Notes: generated by a model not told the origin, from the sequence alone. A stretch of DNA of 64,000 nucleotides from an uncultured Planctomycetia bacterium (GCA_964460615.1 CAYWPX010000004.1:83116-147115), one strand, 5' to 3'; positions 497 to 62,302 are shown, counted from the first letter of the stretch. Program-made: numbers and translations.

Positions 497-603
497 AAAT
501 TCCTTTAACGTACTACGTACGGAGTACGGAGTACTGCGTTAACGAACCTTAAAATTTATCTATCTTATTTTTTTACGCCGTACGCAATACGCTATACGCC
601 GTA

Positions 604-2623: not shown

Positions 2624-3757
2624 TTACGACGTACGATGTACGAAAGTCGATGTACTATTTTTATTATAAACTATCTTCCCCTCAACCATCGTCAAATTAA
2701 TATTAAAATTTTTGTCAAAAATCACAATATCAGCGTCTTTCCCCTCTTGAATACTTCCCTTTCTTTTATCGATCCCTAAAAGCCTTGCCGGATTTATAGT
2801 AACAAATTTTATTGCGTCGGCCAACCCTAAAGAAGTGAATTTTATGCAATTTCTTAATGCTATATTAAGCTTCAGGTCACTCCCAGCTATAGCTCCGTCT
2901 CTTGTCTTAAAAATTCTTCCGTGCCTGACAATACTATTTTTCTTTAAATCTGTATTACTTATTGAATCGCTTATTAAAATTATTTTTTCTAACTCCTTAA
3001 CTCTGAGAACTAATTTAAAGATTTCCGGGCTGATATGAATACCATCCAATATCACTTCGGTATAAATATTTCTATTCATAAGGCTTGCTAAAACACATCC
3101 AGGAACGCGCCCGCTTATACCTGACATTGCATTAAATAAATGTGTAGCCAGCCTGGCGCCGCAGCTAAAACCTTTTTGGGCAGCTTCAAAACTAGCATCC
3201 GTATGCCCCAAAGATGCGATTACCCCTTTTCTGGTCGCTTCTTTTATCAGCTTTTGATTACCGCCTAACTCAGGAGCAAATACCATTACCCTGATCAGGC
3301 TGCCATAACGTCTCAAGACCTTATCAAAAGTTTTCTTATCAGGCCTTTTAATGAATTTCGGGTCCTGAGAGCCTTTTTTAATTCTGCTTATAAATGGGCC
3401 TTCCAGATAATATCCTAAAAACTTTGAATCAAAACCCGAAAAAATTCCCGCTGTACCTATCTCATCAATTTTGCTTATTTCATCAGTAGATAGCGCCCTC
3501 AAAAATGACGTAACACCGGAACTGGGATTAGTTTTTGCTATTGAACTTGTTTCACCATGAATATGTATATCTATAAACCCGGCGGAAACATAGTTATCAT
3601 TAGCGTCAATAATTAAAGTATTTTCTGGAAAGGATCTTTTGCCGGACTTTGGAAAAACACCTATTATTGTTTTGCCTTTTACTAATATATTACTATTGGA
3701 CCCGCCCGACGGCAATATTACGCGGCCGTTGGTTATCAATATATATTTTTCGTCCAT
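2624..3757 (-). CDS. nagA: N-acetylglucosamine-6-phosphate deacetylase (amidohydrolase superfamily)
   Basis: IDIHIHGE metal-binding motif, ...EGKDADIVIFDKNF C-terminal signature; last ~12 codons read through the upstream hairpin cassette before first stop. Confidence 0.8.
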   Translation of the reverse strand: MDEKYILITNGRVILPSGGSNSNILVKGKTIIGVFPKSGKRSFPENTLIIDANDNYVSAGFIDIHIHGETSSIAKTNPSSGVTSFLRALSTDEISKIDEIGTAGIFSGFDSKFLGYYLEGPFISRIKKGSQDPKFIKRPDKKTFDKVLRRYGSLIRVMVFAPELGGNQKLIKEATRKGVIASLGHTDASFEAAQKGFSCGARLATHLFNAMSGISGRVPGCVLASLMNRNIYTEVILDGIHISPEIFKLVLRVKELEKIILISDSISNTDLKKNSIVRHGRIFKTRDGAIAGSDLKLNIALRNCIKFTSLGLADAIKFVTINPARLLGIDKRKGSIQEGKDADIVIFDKNFNINLTMVEGKIVYNKNSTSTFVHRTS

Positions 3758-4038: not shown

Positions 4039-4117
4039 TATTCCTCCTTTTAAGTGTACAGCGATCAGTGTACAGTGATCAGTTAAGCTTAATAGCTAAA
4101 CTTTTTTCCAAACCACC

Positions 4118-5879: not shown

Positions 5880-5915
5880 TTGCTATGAGCTATGAGCTAT
5901 GAGCTATGAGCTAAT
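5880..5915. repeat. TATGAGC heptamer tandem array (4.5 copies) in tpx-DJ-1 spacer
   Basis: ctatgagctatgagctatgagctatgagcta; same heptamer arrays (direct and inverted) at 19296-19390, 27820-27880, 30653-30700, 43577-43670, 51274-51399, 60705-60750, 62233-62302, often flanking a GC-rich hairpin. Confidence 0.75.
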
Positions 5916-7024: not shown

Positions 7025-7053
7025 ATGCCCTCCGATTTTTCTCAGGAAAAATC

Positions 7054-7086
7054 GTCCCGAGTCCGCCTATGGCGAGACGAGGGACT
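7054..7086. promoter_or_regulatory. conserved hairpin motif TCGCCATAGGCGGAYTCGGRACGA upstream of sor; second copy upstream of moxR (35859-35890)
   Basis: minus-strand GTCCCTCGTCTCGCCATAGGCGGACTCGGGACGA vs GTTCCATATTTCGCCATAGGCGGATTCGGAACGA. Confidence 0.5.
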
Positions 7087-7103
7087 ATTCCTTCTTCTTT
7101 TTG

Positions 7104-7187
7104 AAATTCGTGCCGTTCCCGTTATTAAAGGTTAGGTACGAATTTGGTTTTTGTAATTTGCACCGTTACCATTATTAAAGGTTAAAT
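7104..7187. promoter_or_regulatory. two 34-nt direct repeats 50 bp apart in sor promoter region
   Basis: aaattcgtgccgttcccgttattaaaggttaggta / taatttgcaccgttaccattattaaaggttaaata. Confidence 0.45.
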
Positions 7188-7425
7188 ATGATTAATAACA
7201 AATAACATGAATATTAGTTGACGACGAATTAATTCATTACTTTAAATATATTTAAACTAATTTTGTTAAATTTTTTATATATTTAATATAATTTATTATA
7301 ATTATATATAATTAAATATATTTATATAAATCTTACTATATTTAAATATATTCTAAGCATTCCCATATAATAGAGCCTTTTTAAATATAATTTAATTTAA
7401 TTTATTTACTTTAATTTACTTATAT

Positions 7426-7866: not shown

Positions 7867-8003
7867 ATCTCCTCCGATTTTAAATTTGTTTCATGTCACA
7901 GGTCTCATGTCACAAGTTATATATTTTTCGTTTTAACCTGTGGCTTGCAGCCAAAGGAAGTCCCGAAGATTTATTGAGGGACGACTTGTGACTTGCAGCA
8001 TTT

Positions 8004-8195
8004 CTATTTTCTCTTCATCGTTTTGCCACAACAGATTATATCGCACGTGTCAACACATCCGCATATCTCATCGACTTTTACTACCATGCCGCATTTATAG
8101 CATTTAAGCTTGCTTCCCTTTTTAAGGGTTTTTTTGGATGTCTTCTTTATGGATTTTTTTACTGTCTTCTTTGCTCTTTTTTTTACTTTCTTCAT
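8004..8195 (-). CDS. small Lys-rich/Cys-rich metal-binding protein with YHS/TRASH-like CGM motif
   Basis: 63 aa: K-rich N-terminal 28 aa then CYKCGMVVKVDEICGCVDTCDIICCG; GGAGAAG RBS 8 nt upstream; directly downstream of the flavodiiron gene. Confidence 0.45.
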   Translation of the reverse strand: MKKVKKRAKKTVKKSIKKTSKKTLKKGSKLKCYKCGMVVKVDEICGCVDTCDIICCGKTMKRK

Positions 8196-8255
8196 TGTAA
8201 TCTTCTCCTGGTTTTAAAGCTTGAAGCCTGAAGCATGCGACCCCTGCGGGGCATT

Positions 8256-9458: not shown

Positions 9459-9542
9459 TGAGTACCCCTTAAAATTTTTGCTTCAAGCCTCAGGCTACAT
9501 GCTTCTAGTTTTAAGCTTGCAGCAAACGGCCAGGAGCATTTT

Positions 9543-13238: not shown

Positions 13239-13552
13239 TTAAATTCCTGTTTTCGATTTTCGGTTTTCGGTTTGCGTTGAACGTAAACCGAAAACCGTTA
13301 ATCGTTTTTTATTAAAATCAAACTAACTTAGTAAATAATTTAATATCCTCTCCGCAAAAAAAATGGGTAGTTTAACGTCTTGCCCAACCCCGACGTTAAT
13401 TTATTATTAGGTCGGGGCTCCGACCTACCTAAGGCAACATCGGGTAGCATCGGAGGACTACTTCAACAGCCTTCTTTGCAATGAGCCATTTCTCGTACTA
13501 AATACGACACATTCTTTACGTTCTTTTTCATTTTTATCACCCCTTTACAATC

Positions 13553-13940
13553 CAACCGAATGCATGAAAATTATTTTGGATCTTTTCATCAAAAAAATTT
13601 TCATGTTTCTTATGAGGTTGGATAACTCCTCAATAACCCAACTGAATGTATTAAAATTATTTTGAATCTTTATATCAAAAAAATTTTAACACTTCTTACC
13701 CTCTGCAATTCGAAGAATTGCGAGGACTTAGTCCCGGAAATGCTACGCATTTCACGGGGTGAAACTGGGCATATCTTCGATCCAGCTGAATGTGCTAAAA
13801 TTATTTCGGAGGTTTTTATCGAAAGAATTTTAGTACTTATTATGAAGCTGGATAATTCCTTTAAAACCCAGCCGAATATACTAAAATTATTTTGGTTTTT
13901 TCATCAAAAGAATTTTAGTACATGTTATGAGGCTGGGTAT
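13553..13940. repeat. four tandem ~88-nt imperfect-palindromic repeats in an 800-nt non-coding gap
   Basis: units begin CCARCYGAATG... AAAATTATTTYGG ... AATTTTAGTAC ... TTATGAGGCTGG at ~13553, 13641, 13782, 13869; fifth copy at 15411-15481. Confidence 0.75.
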
Positions 13941-14050
13941 ATTTTCAATTCAACCGGACTTTATATCATTATACCTTTTTTACCCTTATGCAGCAATGCC
14001 TAAAGGTACCTAATAATTGACTTTTTTCGCCTTTTTTCTTACATTCAAAC

Positions 14051-15337: not shown

Positions 15338-15354
15338 TTAAACCTCCTTAATGG

Positions 15355-15404
15355 CCCCTACCGTTTTGATTCGCTTTTGCGAATGCAAAACGAATCAGTA
15401 GGGG
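15355..15404. promoter_or_regulatory. 48-50-nt near-perfect palindrome in hcp leader; second copy at 54467-54514
   Basis: CCCCTACCGTTTTGATTCGCTTTTGCGAATGCAAAACGAATCAGTAGGGG, 5 nt before AAGGAGG RBS of hcp; near-identical copy upstream of gltB-like gene. Confidence 0.6.
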
Positions 15405-15410
15405 GAATTA

Positions 15411-15481
15411 CTTCGTCGAATGTGTCAAAATTATCAGATATTTTTATATCTGAAAATTTTGATACTTTTTATGAGACGAAG
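15411..15481. repeat. solitary copy of the 88-nt hairpin repeat in hcp upstream region
   Basis: cttcgtcgaatgtgtcaaaattatcag...ctgaaaattttgatactttttatgagacgaag, internally palindromic. Confidence 0.65.
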
Positions 15482-15511
15482 TTATCTTAATTGGTCCCTT
15501 TTTAGGGACGA

Positions 15512-16237: not shown

Positions 16238-16297
16238 TGGTTTTTCTCTTTTTTAATTTTTCGATGTACTATGTACGAAGTACGATATACTGTTTTT

Positions 16298-17158: not shown

Positions 17159-17566
17159 CTAGCCCTCATTATTTATAAGAGACCCTATACTTACACCTTT
17201 TAACTCATCAAATACTTTCTTTTCTATAGAATCAATTTTCTTTTTCAAAGCACAGGTAGCTCTGTTAGGACAAAGCTTTTTTTTGAAAAAACACTCATTA
17301 AGCCTGAGTCTTCCCTGAAAGATTTGTATCAGGTCCGTGATCAGGATTTTTTTGGCCGGCCTTACCAGCTTAAATCCGCCGCCTATTCCCTTATAAGACG
17401 CGAGCAGACCCGCTTTATTCAGTTTCTGAAGTATCTTCCTTAAAAATGGCCTTGGTATCTTGAGCGTCTTAACCATCTCCGCAACGCTTACGAGCCTGTC
17501 CTCAGAACTTGCCATATACGAAACCGCTCTTACGGCATAATCTGTATCTCTTTTAATTAATTTCAT
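17159..17566 (-). CDS. Rrf2-family transcriptional regulator (IscR/NsrR-like, three-Cys Fe-S site)
   Basis: N-terminal wHTH (DYAVRAVSYMA...), C-terminal NECFFKKKLCPNRATC. Confidence 0.85.
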   Translation of the reverse strand: MKLIKRDTDYAVRAVSYMASSEDRLVSVAEMVKTLKIPRPFLRKILQKLNKAGLLASYKGIGGGFKLVRPAKKILITDLIQIFQGRLRLNECFFKKKLCPNRATCALKKKIDSIEKKVFDELKGVSIGSLINNEG

Positions 17567-17604
17567 TTATTCGCTTCCTTTAAACTGATTGCAAATTTAT
17601 TAAC

Positions 17605-17640
17605 TGACTAAATGATACCACATTAGTATCATTTAGTCAA
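17605..17640. promoter_or_regulatory. 14-bp perfect inverted repeat 40-75 nt upstream of Rrf2 regulator (candidate auto-operator)
   Basis: TGACTAAATGATAC-cacatta-GTATCATTTAGTCA. Confidence 0.55.
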
Positions 17641-17762
17641 GTAAAACTTCTCACAAGAGAGCCCCCTTACCCCTTCCTACCTGGTAAGGGGGCTCTCCTA
17701 CGAAGAGATGCCCCTTATCCCTTCCTACCTGGTAAGGGGGTAATTTCACATAAATAAGTTTC

Positions 17763-19294: not shown

Positions 19295-19390
19295 ATAATT
19301 CAGCTCTTGGCTCTTGGCTCATGGCTAGAGCTCATAACAAATAAGAAAACTAAAAACAATCCTATGAACTATGAGCTATGAACTAAATTG

Positions 19391-23609: not shown

Positions 23610-23635
23610 GGCTTCTCCTTTTTTATGCTTCTATT

Positions 23636-23679
23636 ACAAATAAAAAATCCAATTATCATTCTAAGTCGATAATTGGATT
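23636..23679 (-). terminator. terminator/attenuator hairpin 27 nt upstream of the 1021-aa gene start
   Basis: 12-bp perfect stem AATCCAATTATC..GATAATTGGATT followed by UUUUUAUUU on minus strand. Confidence 0.45.
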
Positions 23680-23824
23680 GGTTTATAGTATATTACTTTA
23701 GCTCTATATATCATGTTCTACCGTTTATTCGGTTTTATTAATCTGTTTCTAAGTAGATATTATGATACTATAGGCCATATATTATATCAAATGAATTATC
23801 TAGATTTTTTGTATCCTAACAAAC

Positions 23825-24058
23825 CTAATCAACTTGTTTTTTTCTAAAAAAAGTAGCTTTTACCCAGCTCCAGTTCAAATATAAGTGTATCAATATCAAT
23901 AAGGATAGCAAAAAACCGTTATATTCATGCACTTCTCCGATAAATCCCATTATTTTTTTGAATAAATGGAACGCCAGTATGATGCCTGTTGAGATCTGTA
24001 TAATTGCTGATACAAAAAGAATAGGATTTACTATCTTAAGCGCCTTTTGCTTATCCAT
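23825..24058 (-). CDS. small membrane protein, hypothetical
   Basis: 77 aa, two hydrophobic helices. Confidence 0.4.
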   Translation of the reverse strand: MDKQKALKIVNPILFVSAIIQISTGIILAFHLFKKIMGFIGEVHEYNGFLLSLLILIHLYLNWSWVKATFFRKKQVD

Positions 24059-24114
24059 ATTTACCTCTCGTCTGGTTTTTTGTCTGAATTCTATTCTCTT
24101 TTATCTGTCTTCTG

Positions 24115-27790: not shown

Positions 27791-27880
27791 TACTTTTTCC
27801 TTAATTTTATCGTAGTAAAGCTTGTTTCTTTGCTATGAGCCCTGCCTGCCGGCAGGCAGGTATGAGCTAAACCGCAGCGG

Positions 27881-30652: not shown

Positions 30653-30694
30653 TTTTTATAGCTTTTCTTTTGACTATGAACCATGAGCTATGAG

Positions 30695-31744
30695 CTACGA
30701 ACTAAACTTTTTCCTATCCCCCACCAATAGCTCGATTAATAAAATCACTAACCCTATCCAAAGAGGTATCTGGAATTTTTCGTTATAACGCTTAAGCATT
30801 TTTGATTCAAGTTCTCTTTTTTCCATTTTAGAGAGCCTGTCTCTATATATCAGATCCAAACCAAATTCCGTTGGACTTGACCTGACATATGTACCGCCGG
30901 TAGCCAGAGCGATTTTCTGCAAGGTTTCTTCGCCAAGCCTTGATTTTACAACATTACCGGATCTATCCTTCAAAAAACCCATTGACCCATCAGACTGGAT
31001 AACAGGGATGAGATCCCCCTCTTTTGTGCCTATCCCGATAGTATAAATTGTAATACCGTCAGCTTTTGCAATTTCAGCTTCCTTGATAGAATCCCCTTCC
31101 ATGTCCTCACCGTCAGTGATTATAACTAAAACTCTGAATTTCTTTTCTGTATTAACAAAGCTCTTTATGGCGTTTTTGATAGCGCTTGTGATATTTGTTC
31201 CTTCCCTCGGGATAGTATTTGTGTCAATACTATCTAGTGTAAGCAAGAACCCGCCATAGTCTACGGTTAAGGGGCATTCAAGAAATGACGAACCGGCAAA
31301 CGCTACTAGCCCGACACGATCCCCTTTTAGATTGCTCACAAGATCTCTTATGGCTAATTTTGATCTTTCAAGGCGGTTTGGTTTTACATCTTCAGCAAGC
31401 ATGGACTTTGAAGTATCAAGCGCGATAAGAATATCCAAACCCTTCCTTTTTACTTCTTCATATTTGAAACCCCATTGCGGCCTTAGTACCGCTATCAATA
31501 AAAAAGAAATACCGATAATCGTAAGAATAATTTTTATCTTCTGTCTTGATCTATCTAAAGACGCTGTAAGTTCTTTAAGAACGTCTTTATCGGCAAAATT
31601 CTCCAGCGCCTTAATTCTTTTTTTCCAGGCCCACACGAAAAATAGAACTAATAAAATTAGCGCTGATATTGCATATATTATTAGATTTTGTTCTTGAAAA
31701 CGCATATATATCCAATGTTTTTTGCCACATGCCTCAAGCTCCAA
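30695..31744 (-). CDS. batB: BatB-like von Willebrand factor A protein
   Basis: MIDAS motif DTSKSM, two N-terminal TM, C-terminal TM. Confidence 0.8.
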   Translation of the reverse strand: MELEACGKKHWIYMRFQEQNLIIYAISALILLVLFFVWAWKKRIKALENFADKDVLKELTASLDRSRQKIKIILTIIGISFLLIAVLRPQWGFKYEEVKRKGLDILIALDTSKSMLAEDVKPNRLERSKLAIRDLVSNLKGDRVGLVAFAGSSFLECPLTVDYGGFLLTLDSIDTNTIPREGTNITSAIKNAIKSFVNTEKKFRVLVIITDGEDMEGDSIKEAEIAKADGITIYTIGIGTKEGDLIPVIQSDGSMGFLKDRSGNVVKSRLGEETLQKIALATGGTYVRSSPTEFGLDLIYRDRLSKMEKRELESKMLKRYNEKFQIPLWIGLVILLIELLVGDRKKFSS

Positions 31745-31787
31745 GCTAAATATTTAGCTTGAGACCTGAAGCCTGTAGCAGCTATTG

Positions 31788-33716: not shown

Positions 33717-34628
33717 TTAACGTAATTTTTTCTCTCTTTCTCTGAAAAACCTGTAGAGGCTTTTTGAATAAGGTATATCCGTCCTTATGTCGATATTATC
33801 CACATTGAGAGAATTAAATATTTTTTTTCTTTCTTCAAACTTTTTGTGAGAGCTGGCTTTATAACCGGCCCTGACCGATCTATTGGAAGTATCTACTAAA
33901 TAACTTCTCCCTGTTTCTGCGTCATTTAATCTTATCATTCCCACATCAGGCAATTCAAGCTCTCTCGGATCTCGTATAGTAACGGCAATACAATCATGGC
34001 GTTTGTTGGCAATGGAGAGCATTTTTTTGTAGTTGGTCTTGGAATAAAAATCTGAAATAATAAAACTAACTGCGCTGTGATTGGTAACGCTGTTAAAATA
34101 ATCCAAGGCGCCCGCAATATCTGTGCCTTTACCCTGGGGCTTATAATACAGGGCCTCTCTGATTATCCTAAGAACATGGCTTGGGCCTTTTCTTGGCGGA
34201 ATGAATTTCTCAATTTTATCGGTAAAGATCAACAATCCGACCTTGTCGTTATTTCTTATCGCTGAAAAAGCAAGGACTGAACAAAGCTCTGCCGCCAATT
34301 CGCTTTTGAGCTGGTGAATGCTTCCAAACCCGGTTGAAGCAGAGACATCGAGTAAGAGCATTACCGTAAGTTCCCTCTCTTCAACAAATTTCTTTACGTG
34401 CGGGTGCCCGGTCCTTGCAGTAACGTTCCAGTCTATGGAACGGATCTCGTCCCCAGGCAGATACTCCCTCACCTCATGAAACTCCATGCCGCGGCCTTTA
34501 AAAACACTCTGGTACTGCCCGGCGAAGACATTGGTAACCATTCGGGAGGTCGTGATCTCTATTAATCGGATTTTTTTTAGGATCTCTTTTGGGATCATTT
34601 TAAAGCCCGTATTTCGCACTTCGCACAT
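33717..34628 (-). CDS. DUF58 (VWA-like) protein, MoxR partner
   Basis: LLLDVSASTGFG VWA-like block; follows moxR. Confidence 0.8.
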   Translation of the reverse strand: MCEVRNTGFKMIPKEILKKIRLIEITTSRMVTNVFAGQYQSVFKGRGMEFHEVREYLPGDEIRSIDWNVTARTGHPHVKKFVEERELTVMLLLDVSASTGFGSIHQLKSELAAELCSVLAFSAIRNNDKVGLLIFTDKIEKFIPPRKGPSHVLRIIREALYYKPQGKGTDIAGALDYFNSVTNHSAVSFIISDFYSKTNYKKMLSIANKRHDCIAVTIRDPRELELPDVGMIRLNDAETGRSYLVDTSNRSVRAGYKASSHKKFEERKKIFNSLNVDNIDIRTDIPYSKSLYRFFREREKKLR

Positions 34629-34708
34629 CGTACATCGTTAAAATTAGTCTTTTTGCAAAATACGATATACGATGTACTATGTACCTGCCTCGCCCATGGG
34701 CGAGGCGT

Positions 34709-35716: not shown

Positions 35717-35736
35717 TTTTTTAAAAATTTACCAAC

Positions 35737-35863
35737 GGGGTTAGTCCTTCCTATCATTTAAGGAAGTGACTTATCCCACAAGGGTAGTCCTTCCTATCAT
35801 TTAAGGAAGTGGCTTATCCCACAAGGGTAGTCCTTCCTATCATTTAAGGAAGTGACTCGTTCC
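35737..35863. repeat. three tandem 42-43-nt direct repeats immediately upstream of moxR (Bat operon)
   Basis: GGGTAGTCCTTCCTATCATTTAAGGAAGTGACTTATCCCACAA x3, each containing CTTCCT..AGGAAG inverted core. Confidence 0.8.
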
Positions 35864-36015
35864 GAATCCGCCTATGGCGAAATATGGAACTACTATTATT
35901 TATCATAATATTATATTAATTTCACAAAAATTGGCAAGAGCTCAAATTGTCTAAATATTTTTTCGGATGGGCCTCCTTATCAATAAAAAAAGAAGGTTAT
36001 TTCTAAATTTATATA

Positions 36016-36771: not shown

Positions 36772-36860
36772 TTTTTTCTCGTACGGCGTCTTTAGTACGG
36801 CGTACTGCGTTAAAATTTTTCTTTTTCGCTGTACACAATACTCCGTACGCCGTACTTCTT
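36772..36860. repeat. GTACG-family hairpin cassette (arm1 - A-rich loop GAAAAAGAAAAATTTTAACG - arm2) between acsB and cooC
   Basis: arm1 GTACGGCGTACGGAG pairs with arm2 CAGTACGCCGTAC; homologous cassettes at 497-603, 2533-2623, 4039-4117, 16238-16297, 34629-34708, 39057-39162, 40393-40462, 51676-51734. Confidence 0.7.
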
Positions 36861-39056: not shown

Positions 39057-39162
39057 TTATTTTACCTCCAAATTATTTTTAGTACTTCGTCGTTCGTACT
39101 TCGTACATCGTTTTTTATTTTTCTTTTTCGATATACGCTATGCGATGTACGATGTACGGTTT
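39057..39162. repeat. GTACG-family hairpin cassette between cooS-like gene and acsB
   Basis: arm1 GTACATCGTACATCG, loop GAAAAAGAAAAATAAAAAACG, arm2 CGATGTACGAAGTAC; same architecture, different arm sequence with preserved pairing. Confidence 0.7.
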
Positions 39163-40392: not shown

Positions 40393-40462
40393 ATCTTTTC
40401 CTTTTTATTTAATATTTTTTGGTTTTTTCGAAATACGATGTACTATGTACGAAATACTGCTT

Positions 40463-43576: not shown

Positions 43577-43670
43577 GTCTATGCCTTTAATTAAAAACGA
43601 TTTTTTTCTATGAGCTCTGCCTGCCTACGGCTTTGCCGTGAAGCAGGCGAAACTATGAGCCATGAGCTAA

Positions 43671-48117: not shown

Positions 48118-48317
48118 TGCTTTGTTTCAAGCTCTTTGGGTTTTCTCGGGATCAAGAGCCACATAACTAGATACACGACTATCCCAAACCCCCAAAGAAG
48201 AGTAATTAAGATAAAAAGGATCCTAAAAAACACGGGATCCTTGTCAAAGTACTCTCCCAGGCCTCCGCAAACACCCGCAATTTTCCGGTCAGTGTTAGAA
48301 AGATATAATCTTTTCAT
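48114..48317 (-). CDS. PspC-domain membrane protein
   Basis: LYLSNTDRKIAGVCGGLGEYF PspC motif plus one TM; 67 aa; start overlaps deaminase end. Confidence 0.6.
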   Translation of the reverse strand: MKRLYLSNTDRKIAGVCGGLGEYFDKDPVFFRILFILITLLWGFGIVVYLVMWLLIPRKPKELETKH

Positions 48318-48330
48318 GGGAATATTAAAT

Positions 48331-51258: not shown

Positions 51259-51399
51259 GTAAATGCCTTTCATTTAGCTCTTAGCTCATGGTTCATGGCT
51301 CATAGTAAAACCAAGAATTATATAATATGGGTTTTTAGTTTTTGCTATGAGCTCTGGCTGCCTCGCCGTAGGCGAGCAGGCGAAGCTATGAGCAATGAG

Positions 51400-51666
51400 C
51401 TACTTTACATACCCGCACCCCGGGTATGGTTTTGCTTTTCTTAAGACATCTTTTATCTCTACACAATTAAAAACTTTTCCGGATATGGTCTTTTGCGGCC
51501 CCAGCCTGGAATCATAAGCTACGCAAAAATAATGGCCGAACGCATCTTTTGAGAGGTTTTGGCATGGATCGGTAGATGCACCGCAACACTCACCGCATCG
51601 AATGCACTTCGCTTCTTCCGCTAGGTGTTTTTCTTCTAGTTTTTTATTATAAAGTTTATCATCCAT
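51400..51666 (-). CDS. YkgJ-family Cys-rich Fe-S/zinc protein (CxxCxxCC)
   Basis: CIRCGECCG motif plus downstream Cys; tracked ORF begins at GTG, ATG at 51666 preferred. Confidence 0.55.
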   Translation of the reverse strand: MDDKLYNKKLEEKHLAEEAKCIRCGECCGASTDPCQNLSKDAFGHYFCVAYDSRLGPQKTISGKVFNCVEIKDVLRKAKPYPGCGYVK

Positions 51667-51734
51667 AATTAGCACATCGACCTTCGTACATCGTACTTCG
51701 TATTTAGTTTTTGCTATGTACTAAGTACGATATA

Positions 51735-52487
51735 CTATGTACTGCCTTTAATCATCATCACCGACATCATCCTGCCGCAATCTCGGCCTTCTTTTCTATA
51801 AGAAAAGAATTCATCGCTCTGACAATAAGTACAAATTTTGGGATCAAAGATATTATCATCCGATACTCCCATATCTTTAAGCTGGGCTATATTGACGCCT
51901 GCCAGATCAAGATATAACTTGTTATTTTTTTCAAGGATAAAACCTGGAAAAATATCCCTCATTTCATTCCCCACCTCATAAGAACAGCTTCTTATGGAAG
52001 GGCCGAGCCATGTAAAAATATTACTTGGAACTGTACCGAACCTCTTTTTCATTGATTCAATTGTTTTAACTGCAATATTATCTTTTGTGCTGCGCCAGCC
52101 GGCATGCACTACAGCAATAGCCTTGGTTTTCTTATCCAGCAGGAATAGAGATAAACAATCAGCGGTAAAAACGGCTATAGGAACATCAGCCCTGTCGGTC
52201 ATTATAGCATCAAACCCAATTAACCTGTTATTATTTGAGATCGCTCCTTTTCCCCGGTCAGATTCATCCGCATAATATATATCCGATTTATGGACCTGCT
52301 CCGACGAAACCAGATCCTCATGATTTATACCAAGTATCCTAAGGAATTTTTTTCTGTCCGGTAGCGTATTGGAGGTATCGCCATGCGAAAATGACATATT
52401 CCCATCTAGCTTTAAACTAAAGGAAACGATAATATCGTTAAAGACTGACTCTATATTTTGACCTATTTGGGTATTATTATTAAGCAT
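51735..52487 (-). CDS. pgeF: YfiH/PgeF family purine nucleoside phosphorylase / peptidoglycan editing factor (Cu-oxidase_4)
   Basis: VVHAGWRS, FTADCL conserved His/Cys blocks; 250 aa. Confidence 0.8.
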   Translation of the reverse strand: MLNNNTQIGQNIESVFNDIIVSFSLKLDGNMSFSHGDTSNTLPDRKKFLRILGINHEDLVSSEQVHKSDIYYADESDRGKGAISNNNRLIGFDAIMTDRADVPIAVFTADCLSLFLLDKKTKAIAVVHAGWRSTKDNIAVKTIESMKKRFGTVPSNIFTWLGPSIRSCSYEVGNEMRDIFPGFILEKNNKLYLDLAGVNIAQLKDMGVSDDNIFDPKICTYCQSDEFFSYRKEGRDCGRMMSVMMIKGST

Positions 52488-54341: not shown

Positions 54342-54466
54342 AAAACCCCCTCCATTTTTTGCCTAATAAGTAGGCTATTATTGCCTAAATTTTGGGCAGT
54401 GTTGACCGAAAAAAAATACCTAAATTATAGGTACCTTAATAAAACTGTAGTAGTAATTTTAGCCGT

Positions 54467-54514
54467 CCCCTACTGATTCGTTTTGCTCTGCAAAAGCGAA
54501 TCAAACCATAGGGG
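54467..54514. promoter_or_regulatory. second copy of 48-nt palindrome, ~130 nt upstream of gltB-like gene start
   Basis: cccctactgattcgttttgctctgcaaaagcgaatcaaaccatagggg. Confidence 0.6.
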
Positions 54515-54568
54515 TTAATTCGCACTAATAATTTATGTTGGTTACGCCTGCCATAAATTATGTGCTCA

Positions 54569-54602
54569 TTAAAAAAGGCATCCCCAAAGAATCAGGGACG
54601 CC
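54569..54602 (-). terminator. terminator after treT
   Basis: GGCGUCCC/GGGGAUGCC stem followed by U6 on minus strand. Confidence 0.55.
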
Positions 54603-54699
54603 TTTGTCTAATTCATAATGCCTTTGCTTCCTTGCAAAGGCCGATTACTTATATCTATTATAATAATTCACTTAAAATAGACTGTCAAGAAAAAGTTAA

Positions 54700-57382: not shown

Positions 57383-59614
57383 CTAAGACTTATTTAATAT
57401 TGATATCTCGTTTATTATATTGCCTGCCCATTTATATATATTATTTTCCGCAATTACCTCTTTCATATTTTTCATCCTTTTTTCTTTCTCACCAACGGGC
57501 ATCTCAACGGCAAACTTGATCGCATCCGCAAATTCTTCTATTGCATAGGGATTTACTATAATAGCATCATTCAGTTCGCGCGATGCTCCGGTGAACTTAC
57601 TAAGGACAAGTGCTCCTTTGGAATTTTCTTTTGCGGCAATATATTCTTTTGCGACAAGGTTCATTCCGTCATGGAGAGAACTCACTATACAAAAATCAGC
57701 CATTGCATAAAATGGCTTTATTTCTTCCGGCGAAAAATGCCTTTTTAGATAAATTATCGGTTTCCATTCTCCATCTGAATGTTTCCAGTTTATTTCTTCA
57801 ACCAATTCATCTATCTCTCCCATAAGGTCATGGTATCTTTTTATATGCGTCCGGCTCGGGGCTCCGATCTGGATAAAAACAAGCTTTCCCCTGTAAACCG
57901 GGTTCTTGTCAAGGAACCTGTCAATAGCCTTAATTCGCTCCTCTATACCCTTGGTATAATCGATCCTGTCAACCCCCACGCCAATGATCTTATTTTCCAG
58001 GTCATACTCAAGGCGGATTTTTTCCATTATGCTTTTATCCGAATCCGATACATTGCCGCTTATATTTGGATCTATGCTTATAGGAAAAGGCTTTATGAAA
58101 CTTTCTTTGCCGCTTCTTATGACACTCGATTTTTCTGTGTCAACACGGCATTCTAAAAGACGATTTGCTGTATCAAGAAAATTATTGCAATGAAATTGGG
58201 TATGAAACCCTATGAGGTCGCAGGCTAAAAGCCCGTCAAGTATCTCTTTCTGATAAGGACATATTGAAAAAACCTCCGGGTTAGGCCAAGGAATATGCCA
58301 AAAAAGCGCTACAACCGCATCGGGCTTTTTTTCTTTTATCAATTTTGCCAAAAGCGTAAAATGGTAATCCTGAATAAAAACAAGAGATCTTTTATCCGGG
58401 AGTTCCTCAATTATGCTATCGGCAAATTTTTGATTTACTTTTTTATACATCCTGAAGTCCGCTTCCTTAAAAATCGGCCGCGTATGTGTTATATGGCAAA
58501 GAGGCCAGAGGCCTTCGTTTGAAAAACCATAGTAGTATCCTTCTTCCTCCTCTTTTGTGATCCAAACCCTTTTTAAAATATACCTATTATCATCCGGAGG
58601 AACCCCAAGTTTATTTTTAGAATTTACAAACTTTTTGTCAGCATTTCCGCTGCCATGGGCGATCCATGTCCCGCCGCAGGCTCTTAATAACGGATCTATG
58701 GCTGTTACTACGCCGCTTGCGGGCCTGAAACACCTTGGGGTATTTTTGCCTTCATCGAGAATGTGCATATAAGGTTCTCTATTGGAAACTACAATAAGGG
58801 CATTTTCACCTATTTTTGCCTTAACGAGATCTCTTAGTTTGGATTCAGTCCATCTTTCTTCTTTTTGGACCCTCTCCTGAGCTTCTTCTGAGATCACCTT
58901 TCTTGCTACTCTGAGGCTTAGGGCTACCTGTTCAACTTCACTGGCAAGCTTTCCAAGTTCATCTTTTTGAATAGGATGAAATGAATCTATTTCGCCTTTT
59001 TGAAAACCATGAAACCATTCTGTAAGCTGTTTTACCGGCATAACAAATATCTGGCGCTGCATCAAAAGAGTAATAAAAAATATCAATATGACCAGTACCC
59101 CGAGCGGCATAACCATCTTCTTCCATAGTTCGCTCATCTCCGTAAAAACATACGATGTATCATAGACTACTTCCGACAATCCTATGACATTATTTTCGTC
59201 GTCCAAAACGGGGATTATATAGCTGTAAAATGAATATTCTTTGAATTTTTCCAGGTTTCCGCGGGGTGTTTTGTTCTGAAGGATTTCCTTGATGTAGGGG
59301 CGGTCTTTATCTCTCCAATCGGCAATCCTCTCCGTTATAGCAATAATATTGCCTTCTTTGTCATATAATACGCAGCCTTGCATCCGCTCCCTTTTTTGAA
59401 AGCCTTCCACAAGACGATTAGCGGCTTTAATGTCATTATTTAAGAAAATATACTTTGCGGAAATTTCTATGCTTTCATCAACGCTACGGGCCTTCCTTTT
59501 AAGATCGTCTAATAAATTATTTTCCTGGAGTTTCGCCTGGAAAAACCCAAATGCGGCGAACCCGGCGGATACAATCAGGAGGATTGGGAGGATAAAAAGT
59601 AAAATTTTTTTCAT
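57383..59614 (-). CDS. otsA: trehalose-6-phosphate synthase (GT20) with N-terminal periplasmic sensor domain, second TM and HAMP-like linker
   Basis: TM1, ~150 aa extracytoplasmic, TM2, PVKQLTEWFHGFQKGEID...DELGKLASEVEQVA HAMP-like, then LIVVSNREPYMH GT20 start. Confidence 0.8.
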   Translation of the reverse strand: MKKILLFILPILLIVSAGFAAFGFFQAKLQENNLLDDLKRKARSVDESIEISAKYIFLNNDIKAANRLVEGFQKRERMQGCVLYDKEGNIIAITERIADWRDKDRPYIKEILQNKTPRGNLEKFKEYSFYSYIIPVLDDENNVIGLSEVVYDTSYVFTEMSELWKKMVMPLGVLVILIFFITLLMQRQIFVMPVKQLTEWFHGFQKGEIDSFHPIQKDELGKLASEVEQVALSLRVARKVISEEAQERVQKEERWTESKLRDLVKAKIGENALIVVSNREPYMHILDEGKNTPRCFRPASGVVTAIDPLLRACGGTWIAHGSGNADKKFVNSKNKLGVPPDDNRYILKRVWITKEEEEGYYYGFSNEGLWPLCHITHTRPIFKEADFRMYKKVNQKFADSIIEELPDKRSLVFIQDYHFTLLAKLIKEKKPDAVVALFWHIPWPNPEVFSICPYQKEILDGLLACDLIGFHTQFHCNNFLDTANRLLECRVDTEKSSVIRSGKESFIKPFPISIDPNISGNVSDSDKSIMEKIRLEYDLENKIIGVGVDRIDYTKGIEERIKAIDRFLDKNPVYRGKLVFIQIGAPSRTHIKRYHDLMGEIDELVEEINWKHSDGEWKPIIYLKRHFSPEEIKPFYAMADFCIVSSLHDGMNLVAKEYIAAKENSKGALVLSKFTGASRELNDAIIVNPYAIEEFADAIKFAVEMPVGEKEKRMKNMKEVIAENNIYKWAGNIINEISILNKS

Positions 59615-59825
59615 ATGATACCCTCAAAGAAGATAAATATGGCGGCCCGACCACATGAAAAACCTCTGGAAGTCTTTGGTAACTTCCAGACCCTTTAACG
59701 ATAAATATATATTCCAATTTTACATAATTACTAAAATAAAATCAAGCGAATATAATAAATCTTTCTTAGCTCATACTTGCCCTACGGCTTTGCAATAAGG
59801 CAGTGCAGCAGACTAGAAAAAGTTT

Positions 59826-60704: not shown

Positions 60705-60750
60705 ATTTAATTCTTACCATGAGCTAAGAGCAATGAACTATGAGCTAATT

Positions 60751-62235: not shown

Positions 62236-62291
62236 AAAAAAACCATGAGCTCTGCCTGCCTCGCTGTAGGCGAGCAGGCGAAACTATGAGC
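62236..62291 (-). terminator. terminator after gltB (GC hairpin of TATGAGC family plus U7)
   Basis: stem GCCTGCCTCGC..GCGAGCAGGC flanked by inverted CTCATAG units then TTTTTTT on minus strand. Confidence 0.6.
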
Positions 62292-62302
62292 TATGAGCTA
62301 AA

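Follow-up and report, generated by a model that had tools for sequence, protein, structure and literature searches.

Tandem repeats of the short tandemly repeated repetitive (STRR) type are known from heterocystous cyanobacteria, where the units of STRR1–3 are CCCCAGT, TTGGTCA and CAACAGT. Intergenic heptamer repeats have been recorded for decades in cyanobacteria, Xanthomonas, Beggiatoaceae and Bacteroidetes, without any demonstrated function. For STRRs and heptanucleotide long simple sequence repeats (SSRs), an origin by polymerase slippage has been proposed and the function is given as unknown (Mazel et al. 1990; Mrazek et al. 2007, as summarized in PMC4692102). The GGGAATC/GGGGAYT heptamers of Xanthomonas and Nostoc are G-rich and have been interpreted as G-quadruplex formers, and related species carry such arrays between corresponding gene pairs, although neither length nor sequence is constant (Rehm et al. 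2015, PMC4692102). The TAACTGA repeats of marine Beggiatoaceae, Cyanobacteria and Bacteroidetes have been proposed to act post-transcriptionally, with a Csp-type protein as the binder; their forward units provide stop codons in three frames, 13 sets overlap the upstream stop codon, and the arrays end near the next start codon (MacGregor 2015, PMC4679880). Finally, the repetitive extragenic palindromic (REP) sequences of Proteobacteria, their mosaic clusters (bacterial interspersed mosaic elements, BIMEs) and hairpin-forming doublets (REPINs) have arms that are fixed-length imperfect palindromes; they are associated with the RAYT transposase and are placed at random in extragenic space (Bertels and Rainey 2011, PMC3116915). 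Here we describe cassettes that fill the short spacers between genes in a 64-kb stretch of bacterial DNA (CAYWPX010000004.1:83116-147115; "the window" refers to this whole stretch). We are highly confident in describing them as STRR-like tandem arrays of degenerate heptanucleotides, stop-anchored and operon-internal; as the best overall explanation, to which we give about an even chance, we propose that slippage-derived arrays form intercistronic hairpins in the mRNA.

The window has a G+C content of ~39% and contains ~58 genes, every one on the minus strand, on which all the arrays described below are also given. In the genome collection the best matches of its acetyl-CoA synthase (ACS) protein are from metagenome-assembled genomes (MAGs) of Candidatus Omnitrophota (identity at most 68%), while the JGI metagenome collection yielded no closer ACS relative (best identity at most 62%); judging from ACS, the window organism is Omnitrophota-like, i.e. 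evidently an uncultured Candidatus Omnitrophota bacterium. At these levels of identity the orthologous spacers of relatives cannot be aligned. The set of related loci comprised 161 sequences (2.15 Mb), namely the window and ACS-containing loci of genomes and metagenomes, and as the loci were picked via this one gene, a single genomic neighborhood was sampled per genome. Contigs identical to the window are present in public metagenome assemblies, and L163 is the sole variant; most contigs recovered by exact-protein look-ups belong to the same strain, and one such look-up had no result. The population is represented in the samples SRR12487046, ERZ4216102 and ERZ27286469. Open reading frames (ORFs) were called with a length cut-off of 80 aa; arrays were detected by pattern search, Tandem Repeats Finder, a sliding autocorrelation scan and a relaxed scan (at least 3 units); and fold z-scores were obtained from RNA folding against dinucleotide shuffles. 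A full-text literature search found nothing on heptamer repeats in Omnitrophota, no Rfam family matches the cassettes at the gathering thresholds, and no tRNA was found in the window.

The first-pass annotation of the window had singled out nine spacers, referred to here by their first nucleotide (497, 2533, 4039, 16238, 34629, 36772, 39057, 40393 and 51676), as a family of hairpins with GTACG/ATCG arms. These spacers are real: they are the exact gaps separating consecutive minus-strand ORFs, and their repeat is non-random, with GTAYNNNGTAYNNNGTAY occurring 19 times in the window against 0.00 expected (pattern search). What had been missed is the nature of the arms. On the coding (minus) strand each of them is a head-to-tail array, with a period of 7, of degenerate GTAYNNC heptamers, 2–5 in variable number, with units such as GTACGGC, GTATAGC, GTACATC and GTATATC in arm1 and their complements, such as GCCGTAC and GATGTAC, in arm2. 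Period-7 arrays were called by Tandem Repeats Finder at the majority of the sites, and in the sliding autocorrelation scan 7 is the only enriched period, with 13 regions in the window (12 of them intergenic) versus 0–2 regions for each of the other periods from 4 to 13, period 14 being a harmonic. Matches of the relaxed scan have a density of 27 per kb in intergenic and 0.14 per kb in coding sequence (~190-fold difference). The family also extends well beyond nine gaps and GTAC arms. Of the 40 gaps measuring 25 nt or more, 21 have arrays of at least 3 units (23 if two arrays split by GC hairpins are added), and the relaxed scan places arrays in about four fifths of the gaps of up to 150 nt; the window thus holds at least 21 dispersed array loci with at least five unit types (GTAYNNC, GCTCATA, CGAAAAC, CTNCAGG and CTGWWCR). 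About half of the array-bearing gaps have an inverted partner array, and the rest carry single arrays.

A full cassette reads, in coding-strand order, stop codon, 3–5 heptamers, A-rich linker, inverted array of the same type, and ribosome-binding site (RBS) with ATG. The arm1-loop-arm2-RBS-ATG layout, claimed for all nine spacers, is exhibited by six of them. In cassette 497, arm1 (574–607, GTACGGC/GTATAGC/GTATTGC) overlaps the stop codon of a glmS-like gene (604–2532) and is followed by the A/T-rich linker that forms the loop (540–573) and by arm2 (509–539), an inverted array of NCCGTAC units that ends 14 nt before the ATG of an rsmI-like gene; this cassette folds weakly (z -2.2). Spacer 2533 taken alone resembles two direct arrays around a GC hairpin, and its true arm1 (2624–2645, GTACATC/GTACGTC) lies within the last codons and the stop of the ORF 2624–3757; with this arm added the z-score is -6.65, and arm2 (2538–2599) consists of TACGATA units, interrupted at 2559–2578 by a GC palindrome of 20 nt, CCTGCCTGCCGGCAGGCAGG. 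The other four fold far better than their shuffles. Cassette 34629 (z -6.3) has a GC hairpin (34687–34706) in front of arm1 (34655–34685, GTACATA/GTACATC/GTATATC), and its arm2 (34607–34638, CGATGTA units) extends over the ATG annotated as the start of the DUF58 gene (34628). In cassette 36772 (z -7.5), arm1 of the GTACGGC type (36827–36855) lies 5 nt past the stop of the ACS gene and arm2 of the GCCGTAC type (36780–36809) precedes a cooC-like gene. In cassette 39057 (z -4.4), arm1 of the GTACATC type (39129–39158) lies 4 nt past the stop of a CODH-like gene and arm2 (39082–39110, GAAGTAC/GATGTAC) precedes the RBS of the ACS gene. In cassette 51676 (z -4.3), arm1 (51713–51742) overlaps the TAG stop of the gene 51735–52487 and is paired with arm2 at 51675–51703 (GAAGTAC/GATGTAC). 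Three further cassettes that had not been noticed earlier also fold well, namely 19295 of the GCTCATA type (19302–19384, with arm1 at 19361–19384 and arm2 at 19302–19336; z -2.9), 51274 of the same type (51275–51402, with arm1 and a GC hairpin at 51344–51402 and arm2 at 51275–51305; z -5.75) and 13239, an inverted pair of (CGGTTTT)/(CGAAAAC) arrays (13249–13297; z -5.65). Taken together, nine cassettes of the window have z-scores from -2.2 to -7.5 and are inverted doublets predicted to form hairpins. At cassette 34629 the first ~7 codons of DUF58 would be encoded by the array and ATG 34628 is not preceded by a Shine-Dalgarno (SD) sequence; the true start of this gene may be located further downstream.

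The remaining three of the nine spacers carry single, unstructured arrays, without a partner array even when the flanking coding sequence is included, and they fold like shuffles. These are 4039 (array at 4054–4082, CTGATCA/CTGTACA/CTGATCG/CTGTACA, with a period of 7 and alternating units that give a 14-nt match in Tandem Repeats Finder; z -0.7), 16238 (16262–16291, GTATATC GTACTTC GTACATA GTACATC, 6 nt past the stop; z -1.1) and 40393 (40429–40458, GTATTTC GTACATA GTACATC GTATTTC, 4 nt past the stop; z -0.2). Among the gaps not listed before, 5882–5914 has a perfect (GCTCATA)x4.6 array with the upstream TAG stop in phase, and the same GCTCATA/CTCATAG layout recurs, apart from the two cassettes mentioned above, in single arrays at 30674–30698 (in the Bat operon, with the stop codon in phase) and 60717–60748 (directly past the stop), around the palindrome CCTGCCTGCCGGCAGGCAGG (27841–27860) at 27832–27871, and around nested GC hairpins at 43608–43670 and 62243–62302 (the latter directly past the stop). 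The Bat operon also contains a single array of the CTNCAGG type (31756–31782), and arrays of the CTTCAGG/CCTGAAG type, GCTGCAAGC ... AGCCTGAGGCTTGAAGC, are found at 9480–9523. The single arrays bring to mind another reading, which we consider improbable, namely that an abundant nucleic-acid-binding protein with a ~7-nt footprint (of the cold-shock-domain/OB-fold, S1-like or other type) binds the intercistronic mRNA with one monomer per unit, in which case the inverted partners would compete with the binding or modulate it. This would suit the lack of structure in the single arrays (z about 0), the A-rich tracts that follow them and the polarity of the arrays relative to the direction of the genes, and the period of 7 agrees with the reported binding of one CspB per heptamer, an idea also put forward for the TAACTGA repeats (PMC4679880). 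However, folding predicts a duplex that would sequester the array in half of the cases, and the occurrence of several unrelated units per genome, and of dozens across the lineage, argues against sequence-specific recognition. Recognition of (UAG-N4)n in the manner of HutP was considered but dropped, as many units lack UAG. A CRISPR array was also rejected, since the repeats directly adjoin one another, with no unique spacers between them.

How the two arms are matched was analyzed by computing the energies of all arm1 × arm2 duplexes, which form blocks corresponding to a GGC type (497, 36772), an ATC type (34629, 39057, 51676), a GCTCATA type (19295, 51274) and CGAAAAC. The actual pairing of arms beats random re-pairing (p ~8e-4, all types pooled), and in all two-armed gaps of the window both arms have the same unit type in opposite orientation. 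The earlier statement that the arms differ between loci and yet stay complementary is thus correct within the two-armed cassettes, but the variation follows the heptamer type and not the locus: in re-pairings within the GTAC family, 10 of 120 permutations equal or surpass the actual one. Covariation was assessed by alignment-based pair counts, a fixed-column model being poorly suited to variable copy number and ambiguous register. Folding the six GTAC cassettes to a consensus gave 17 pairs; 92% of the cells are paired, compared to 83% in column shuffles (0/500), and there are 10 double-sided changes compared to 4.3 (0/500), located at the variable positions of the heptamer. These figures agree with the suggestion that covariation argues for a conserved structure; however, the double-sided changes are the GG/CC versus AT/AT contrast of two sub-types and hence represent very few independent events, equally well explained by arms made of the same unit, so that covariation does not alone show selection on RNA structure. 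Part of the apparent complementarity comes from the palindromic GTAC core by itself. Each cassette can pair in 3–6 alternative registers offset by exactly 7 nt, with no less than 70% pairing in every one of them; owing to these multiple registers of periodic arms, the stem tolerates the gain or loss of units.

The placement of the arrays relative to genes is strongly biased. In the 2.15 Mb of related sequence, 75 arrays are located in tandem gaps, 2 in convergent and 1 in divergent gaps, against a background of 737, 65 and 75 gaps, respectively (bias towards co-directional gaps: p = 1.5e-5 by bases, 8e-4 by count). The genes flanking the arrays are apparently co-transcribed, and two clusters of the window in which cassettes lie are classic co-transcribed ones, the Bat operon (MoxR, DUF58, three VWA proteins, TPR, BatD, TPR/SH3) and the CODH/ACS cluster (radical-SAM/HypC, CODH-like, ACS, CooC). 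The clear intrinsic terminators (52733–52701 and 49508–49482) and the best promoter match (35937–35910) are found in long array-free gaps. The cassettes were considered as intrinsic terminators and as promoters, and both candidates were rejected: the terminator scan found none at the cassettes, in which the A-rich tract is the loop and does not lie 3' of the stem, and no promoter match coincides with a cassette. As had been proposed, the cassettes sit between the preceding stop and the RBS or start codon of the next gene. In 29 of 65 gaps, at most 8 nt separate the upstream stop codon from the start of the first array, and among gaps of at least 100 nt this holds for 13 of 37, compared with 4.9 expected under uniform placement; at the other end, arm2 usually terminates from a few to ~25 nt before the start codon, and an SD sequence is then usually present. 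The stop-proximal arm has a constant orientation in the window, and the AGCGTAT unit is the stop-proximal one in several genomes. In ~20 gaps the gene terminates on a stop codon that belongs to the array in phase and is the same triplet as the stop within the unit (TAG with CTCATAG, CGTATAG and TAACTAG; TAA with TCGGTAA and GCTTTAA; TGA with GGACTGA and GTATTGA). The two arms of one cassette are not independent counts, a problem sidestepped by analyzing stop anchoring and stop triplets per gap. In stop-adjacent arrays the stop triplet is present on the sense strand in 30 of 41 and on the antisense strand in 14 of 41 (18 vs 2 discordant, p = 4e-4), while arrays further from the stop exhibit no such asymmetry (sense 8/24, antisense 11/24). 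The idea that arrays in general act as a "three-frame stop trap" was therefore discarded, the enrichment being confined to arrays that touch ORF ends; arrays and ORF ends overlap, and only units that give stops in all three frames occur there.

These rules bear directly on the main rival of the hairpin explanation, i.e. that the arrays are neutral or selfish DNA, a by-product of slippage with inverted partners generated by local template switching or fold-back duplication and with no role in the cell. According to this reading, which we regard as rather unlikely and weaker on the placement rules, arrays would pile up where selection permits (in short spacers) and abut ORFs because coding constraint halts their expansion. 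A heptamer-biased slippage has indeed been hypothesized (Mrazek 2007, as cited in PMC4692102), and the restriction of stop-triplet enrichment to arrays touching ORF ends is what a survivorship effect would yield. On the other hand, neutral accumulation accounts poorly for the strong avoidance of convergent and divergent gaps, for stop anchoring that persists in long gaps, for the occupation of ~80% of the short gaps, and for the fact that, in each two-armed gap of the window, both arms have the same unit type and are oppositely oriented.

The comparison with related genomes revealed that the architecture is not genome-specific, contrary to what had been claimed. Among the 161 sequences there are 107 period-7 regions versus 2–50 for other periods, the larger counts at 6, 9 and 12 being coding-type periods. 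The units vary from genome to genome (AGCGTAT, GTATTGA, TATGAAT, TAGTAAC, TCGGTAA, GGACTGA, CCCTAAT and others), but the arrangement of array, short A-rich linker and inverted array recurs, e.g. in L005 (at 12208), L016 (5306 and 12272), L042 (18541), L045 (2087 and 13223), L094, L095, L110 and L114. An inverted partner of the same unit lies within 90 nt of 30 of 75 arrays, compared to 6% if foreign units are used, and at a relaxed threshold 34 of the 65 array-bearing gaps are inverted cassettes. Per 100 kb, the window has 20 arrays; loci labelled as Omnitrophota reach 7.6 and those labelled as Elusimicrobia 6.7, with 0.7 for Actinomycetota and 0–5 for the other loci. Thus, the architecture is lineage-wide: many Omnitrophota and Elusimicrobia MAGs have the same layout with other units. 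The complete turnover of units between genomes is in line with neutral slippage, whereas the recurrence of the layout in dozens of genomes is not.

More than half of all in-ORF arrays in the related loci belong to one gene, prmC/hemK (release-factor glutamine methyltransferase), in which heptamer arrays occur in frame at two fixed positions, directly before LDIGTG (about +251 nt) and directly before LIVSNPPY (about +457 nt). This was observed in L020 (12540–13343), L029 (20184–20972), L034 (20810–21598), L036 (20376–21182), L037 (20654–21442) and L038 (19240–20034), and L017 (17961–18725) is probably also a prmC with arrays; the window itself has no prmC. The units of these arrays depend on the genome and are translated as 7-aa repeats, e.g. 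NTYNLIP-NTYNLIV, and in L037 the two arrays, 200 nt apart, are near reverse complements of each other. Arrays thus occur even in tolerant linker segments of prmC, which is a further point in favor of neutral slippage.

The proposed mechanism may be outlined as follows. Arrays would arise and alter their length by replication slippage, in which the 7-nt unit is favored (an idea already published, PMC4692102), and copies of a unit type would be spread or homogenized within the genome, as is suggested by the linker and arm segments common to several cassettes. In the polycistronic mRNA, the inverted arrays would zip into an imperfect stem of 15–30 bp, which would close the spacer between the stop codon and a point shortly ahead of the next RBS, and owing to the several registers spaced by 7 nt the stem could outlast gain or loss of units. 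We propose that such a stem serves as operon punctuation. It could shield the upstream segment from 3' exonucleases, be a site for a double-strand RNase, or be opened by the terminating ribosome (the helix starting 0–8 nt past the stop) and so tune upstream termination and downstream initiation; a role in stability or processing and one in termination could also be combined. At ORF ends, stop-containing units would close the three reading frames within 21 nt. An intercistronic stem is favored by the restriction to co-directional gaps, the avoidance of gaps with terminators or promoters, the stop anchoring and the universal inverted pairing of the same type. Nevertheless, our assignment of an RNA-hairpin function to the cassettes is tentative, somewhat short of an even chance.

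Several observations weigh against such a function. There is no locus-specific compensation, as arm2 suits same-type arm1 of other cassettes equally well or better, which is what simple co-origin of both arms predicts and what would be expected of neutral debris. Nor does folding distinguish the strands. Of the cassettes in the window, four have the better fold on the sense strand, and in four others the antisense strand is equal or superior; among 34 cassettes the sense fold is better in 20 and the antisense in 11, but 323 array-free gaps are likewise biased (184 vs 113), so that RNA pairing is not told apart from DNA pairing or from no function, and the lack of a cassette-specific sense-strand advantage again suits the neutral reading. 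One conserved U.G wobble in the GTAC stems fits pairing of the sense-strand RNA, and in the L163 strain (98.5% identical) the copy number is kept and the sole change converts U.G to C-G in the sense stem; both observations are anecdotal. The conservation of copy number in this strain, together with the identical sequence in independent samples, speaks against neutral slippage, although the strain comparison rests on one informative variant, L163. Since all genes of the window are on one strand, the polarities of transcription and replication are confounded. ORFs in the related loci were called crudely, by a simple longest-ORF rule. Finally, about half of the arrays are partnerless and unstructured, so the hairpin is not the whole story, and this too is what the neutral reading would lead one to expect.

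In its most far-reaching form, the hairpin explanation could be extended to a sequence-independent system of operon punctuation in Omnitrophota and neighboring phyla, in which a register-degenerate RNA zipper, made from any heptamer, would join the stop to the next RBS and be read by the terminating ribosome and/or by a Csp-like single-strand binder with a period of 7, setting the expression ratio of neighboring genes. We put this forward as a speculation that is distinctly unlikely to hold in full. Were it true, slippage would be a built-in means of retuning the stem length, the intergenic heptamer repeats, unexplained since 1990, would have a defined function, and a link could be drawn to the in-frame arrays of prmC, a release-factor methyltransferase gene.

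The dispersal of cassettes and their parts calls for consideration of a DNA-level element, for instance a mobile hairpin resembling REPINs or miniature inverted-repeat transposable elements, or a cruciform or single-stranded DNA recognized by a transposase or by a replication/recombination factor, that spreads as a whole. Cassettes 497 and 36772 are 95% alike over 20 nt spanning the linker and arm2, CGAAAAAGAAAAAT is common to 36772 and 39057, the stems form on both strands, small GC palindromes are inserted in arrays with the same 20-mer in five genomes, and REPINs are likewise inverted doublets with compensatory changes (PMC3116915). But the arms are tandem arrays of variable copy number and not fixed imperfect palindromes, their placement is non-random and stop-anchored, unlike that of the randomly placed extragenic REPINs, and no transposase was found among the 20 window ORFs scanned against Pfam or on contig L001; we consider this kind of element quite improbable. 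The 20-nt palindrome CCTGCCTGCCGGCAGGCAGG is itself of interest, as its two copies in the window (given above) lie inside arrays of two different unit types, and exact copies are present in four distantly related Omnitrophota genomes (L022 at 8012, L047 at 15733, L086 at 4152, in tandem, and L095 at 11519). A mini-element that is mobile and a hairpin signal that is conserved are both conceivable. Small dispersed repeats are known within the heptamer arrays of Nostoc, of which CCTGCCTGCCGGCAGGCAGG is reminiscent. Related nested GC hairpins GCCTGCTCGCCTACRGCGAGGCAGGC are located at 62254–62279, 43619–43648 and 51344–51402, between direct GCTCATA units directly past the stop, and a stretch of 56 nt is 93% identical between spacers 51274 and 62233, which indicates that whole modules have been dispersed.

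The analysis of the window revealed several other repeats and elements. The sole Rfam match is an nhaA-I riboswitch motif at 59637–59693 on the minus strand (53 bits vs the gathering score of 37, full length), directly upstream of the gene 57383–59614, which encodes not a cation transporter but a 743-aa glycosyltransferase of family 20 (trehalose-6-phosphate synthase-like); GCAAAGCCGTAGG is common to the region of this motif and the GC hairpin of spacer 43577–43670. A 43-bp tandem repeat (35742–35857, 2.7 copies, 97% matches) with a CTTCCTTAAATGATAGGAAG hairpin in each copy sits between the cooC-like gene and moxR, in a gap of 299 nt, together with the best sigma-70-like promoter match mentioned above (35937–35910). 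By eye, at least 5 copies of a long-hairpin element of 75–100 nt (…GTACTAAAATTCTTTTGATGAAAAA…AATAATTTTAGTA…) with variable GC-rich feet were recognized in the 812-nt gap 13239–14050, and a similar long hairpin in 15338–15511. The latter gap shares with 54342–54699 a 40-nt palindromic element, CCCCTACTGATTCGTTTTGCATTCGCAAAAGCGAATCAAA (opposite orientation, 92.5% identical), which is REP-like and unrelated to the heptamer arrays. A 24-nt element, TCGCCATAGGCGGAYTCGGRACGA, is present in the long gaps 7025–7425 and 35717–36015, in the same orientation and near the starts of the downstream genes (92% identical). The GC-rich hairpin CCCCCTTACCAGGTAGGAAGGGRTAAGGGG occurs twice in the gap 17567–17762, upstream of the gene of an Rrf2-family regulator (17159–17566), and is followed there by a long palindrome rich in A and T, TGACTAAATGATAC…GTATCATTTAGTCA, which could be the operator of this gene. 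Plausible short ORFs below the 80-aa cut-off were noticed by eye in 7867–8255 (a Lys-rich, Cys-rich ORF of ~60 aa), 23610–24114 and 48118–48330, and these are accordingly not true intergenic regions. Logan short-read contigs of the same genome break in or next to repeat gaps (L165 starts inside 43577–43670, L162 ends near 35.8 kb and L001 at 5223), which suggests that arrays and dispersed hairpins fragment the assemblies of the window lineage.

The window is an extreme case among genomes with heptamer repeats, with arrays making up ~80% of its short intercistronic spacers, and it displays clear rules (co-directional gaps, stop anchoring, an inverted partner of the same type and 7-nt registers) that are shared across many uncultured Omnitrophota. 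Such rules turn a vague "repeat" into a testable architecture, for which a functional RNA element can be weighed against slippage debris. The arrays also have practical consequences: short-read assemblies are interrupted at cassettes, the apparent starts and stops of genes are displaced, and gene callers can be misled in lineages known from MAGs only.

Compared with the systems introduced at the outset, the arrays are heptanucleotide SSRs in the broad sense, being made of at least three head-to-tail 7-nt units and being over-represented, non-coding and dispersed. In the strict, cyanobacterial sense they are not STRRs, considering the units of the window (GTAYNNC, GCTCATA, CGAAAAC, CTNCAGG, CTGWWCR) and its Omnitrophota-like host. 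What they have in common with STRR-like SSRs, to the extent that these are portrayed in later summaries, is 7-nt tandem units over-represented relative to other periods, a non-coding location and many dispersed loci per genome. They differ in belonging to Omnitrophota and allies, in having other units and several unit types per genome, in forming same-type inverted hairpin pairs in about half of the cases, and in being stop-anchored and confined to co-directional gaps. To our knowledge, inverted pairing, stop anchoring, co-directional restriction and coexisting units are all missing from the description of STRRs.

The GGGAATC/GGGGAYT repeats are also intergenic arrays (2–26 units), of which some are inverted pairs able to form stem-loops (PMC4692102), whereas the units described here are A/T-rich without G-tracts, and inverted pairs are the rule and not the exception. 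The TAACTGA repeats share with our arrays the intergenic location, the polarity relative to genes, the stops in three frames and the overlap with the upstream stop, which is found here at the stop-adjacent arrays. They have, however, one conserved unit, inverted pairs in only 1/170 and mostly no SD sequence downstream (PMC4679880), in contrast to the many units, the frequent inverted pairs and the SD sequence that usually follows arm2 in our case; the TAACTGA unit is not among the arrays of the window. With REPs and REPINs the cassettes have in common that they are short, dispersed extragenic inverted doublets, capable of forming hairpins in single-stranded DNA or mRNA, with changes that keep the stem and with sequence families specific to the genome, and "intercistronic element" and "REP-like module", as proposed in the first-pass annotation, were reasonable analogies. 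The difference lies in the arms, which are variable-copy arrays that do not fold singly, in the transposase, as none is known for the cassettes whereas REPs go with a RAYT of the IS200/IS605 type, and in the placement, which is stop-anchored, operon-internal and co-directional by 75:3. The intergenic excess of heptamers, the STRRs, the GGGAATC arrays (some of them inverted) and the gene polarity, three-frame stops and stop overlap of TAACTGA are already published. What appears to be new is the combination of many units per genome, inverted pairing as the norm, the in-phase stop codon, register-degenerate stems, the near-saturation of short operon spacers, and a phylum-wide layout without conservation of sequence.

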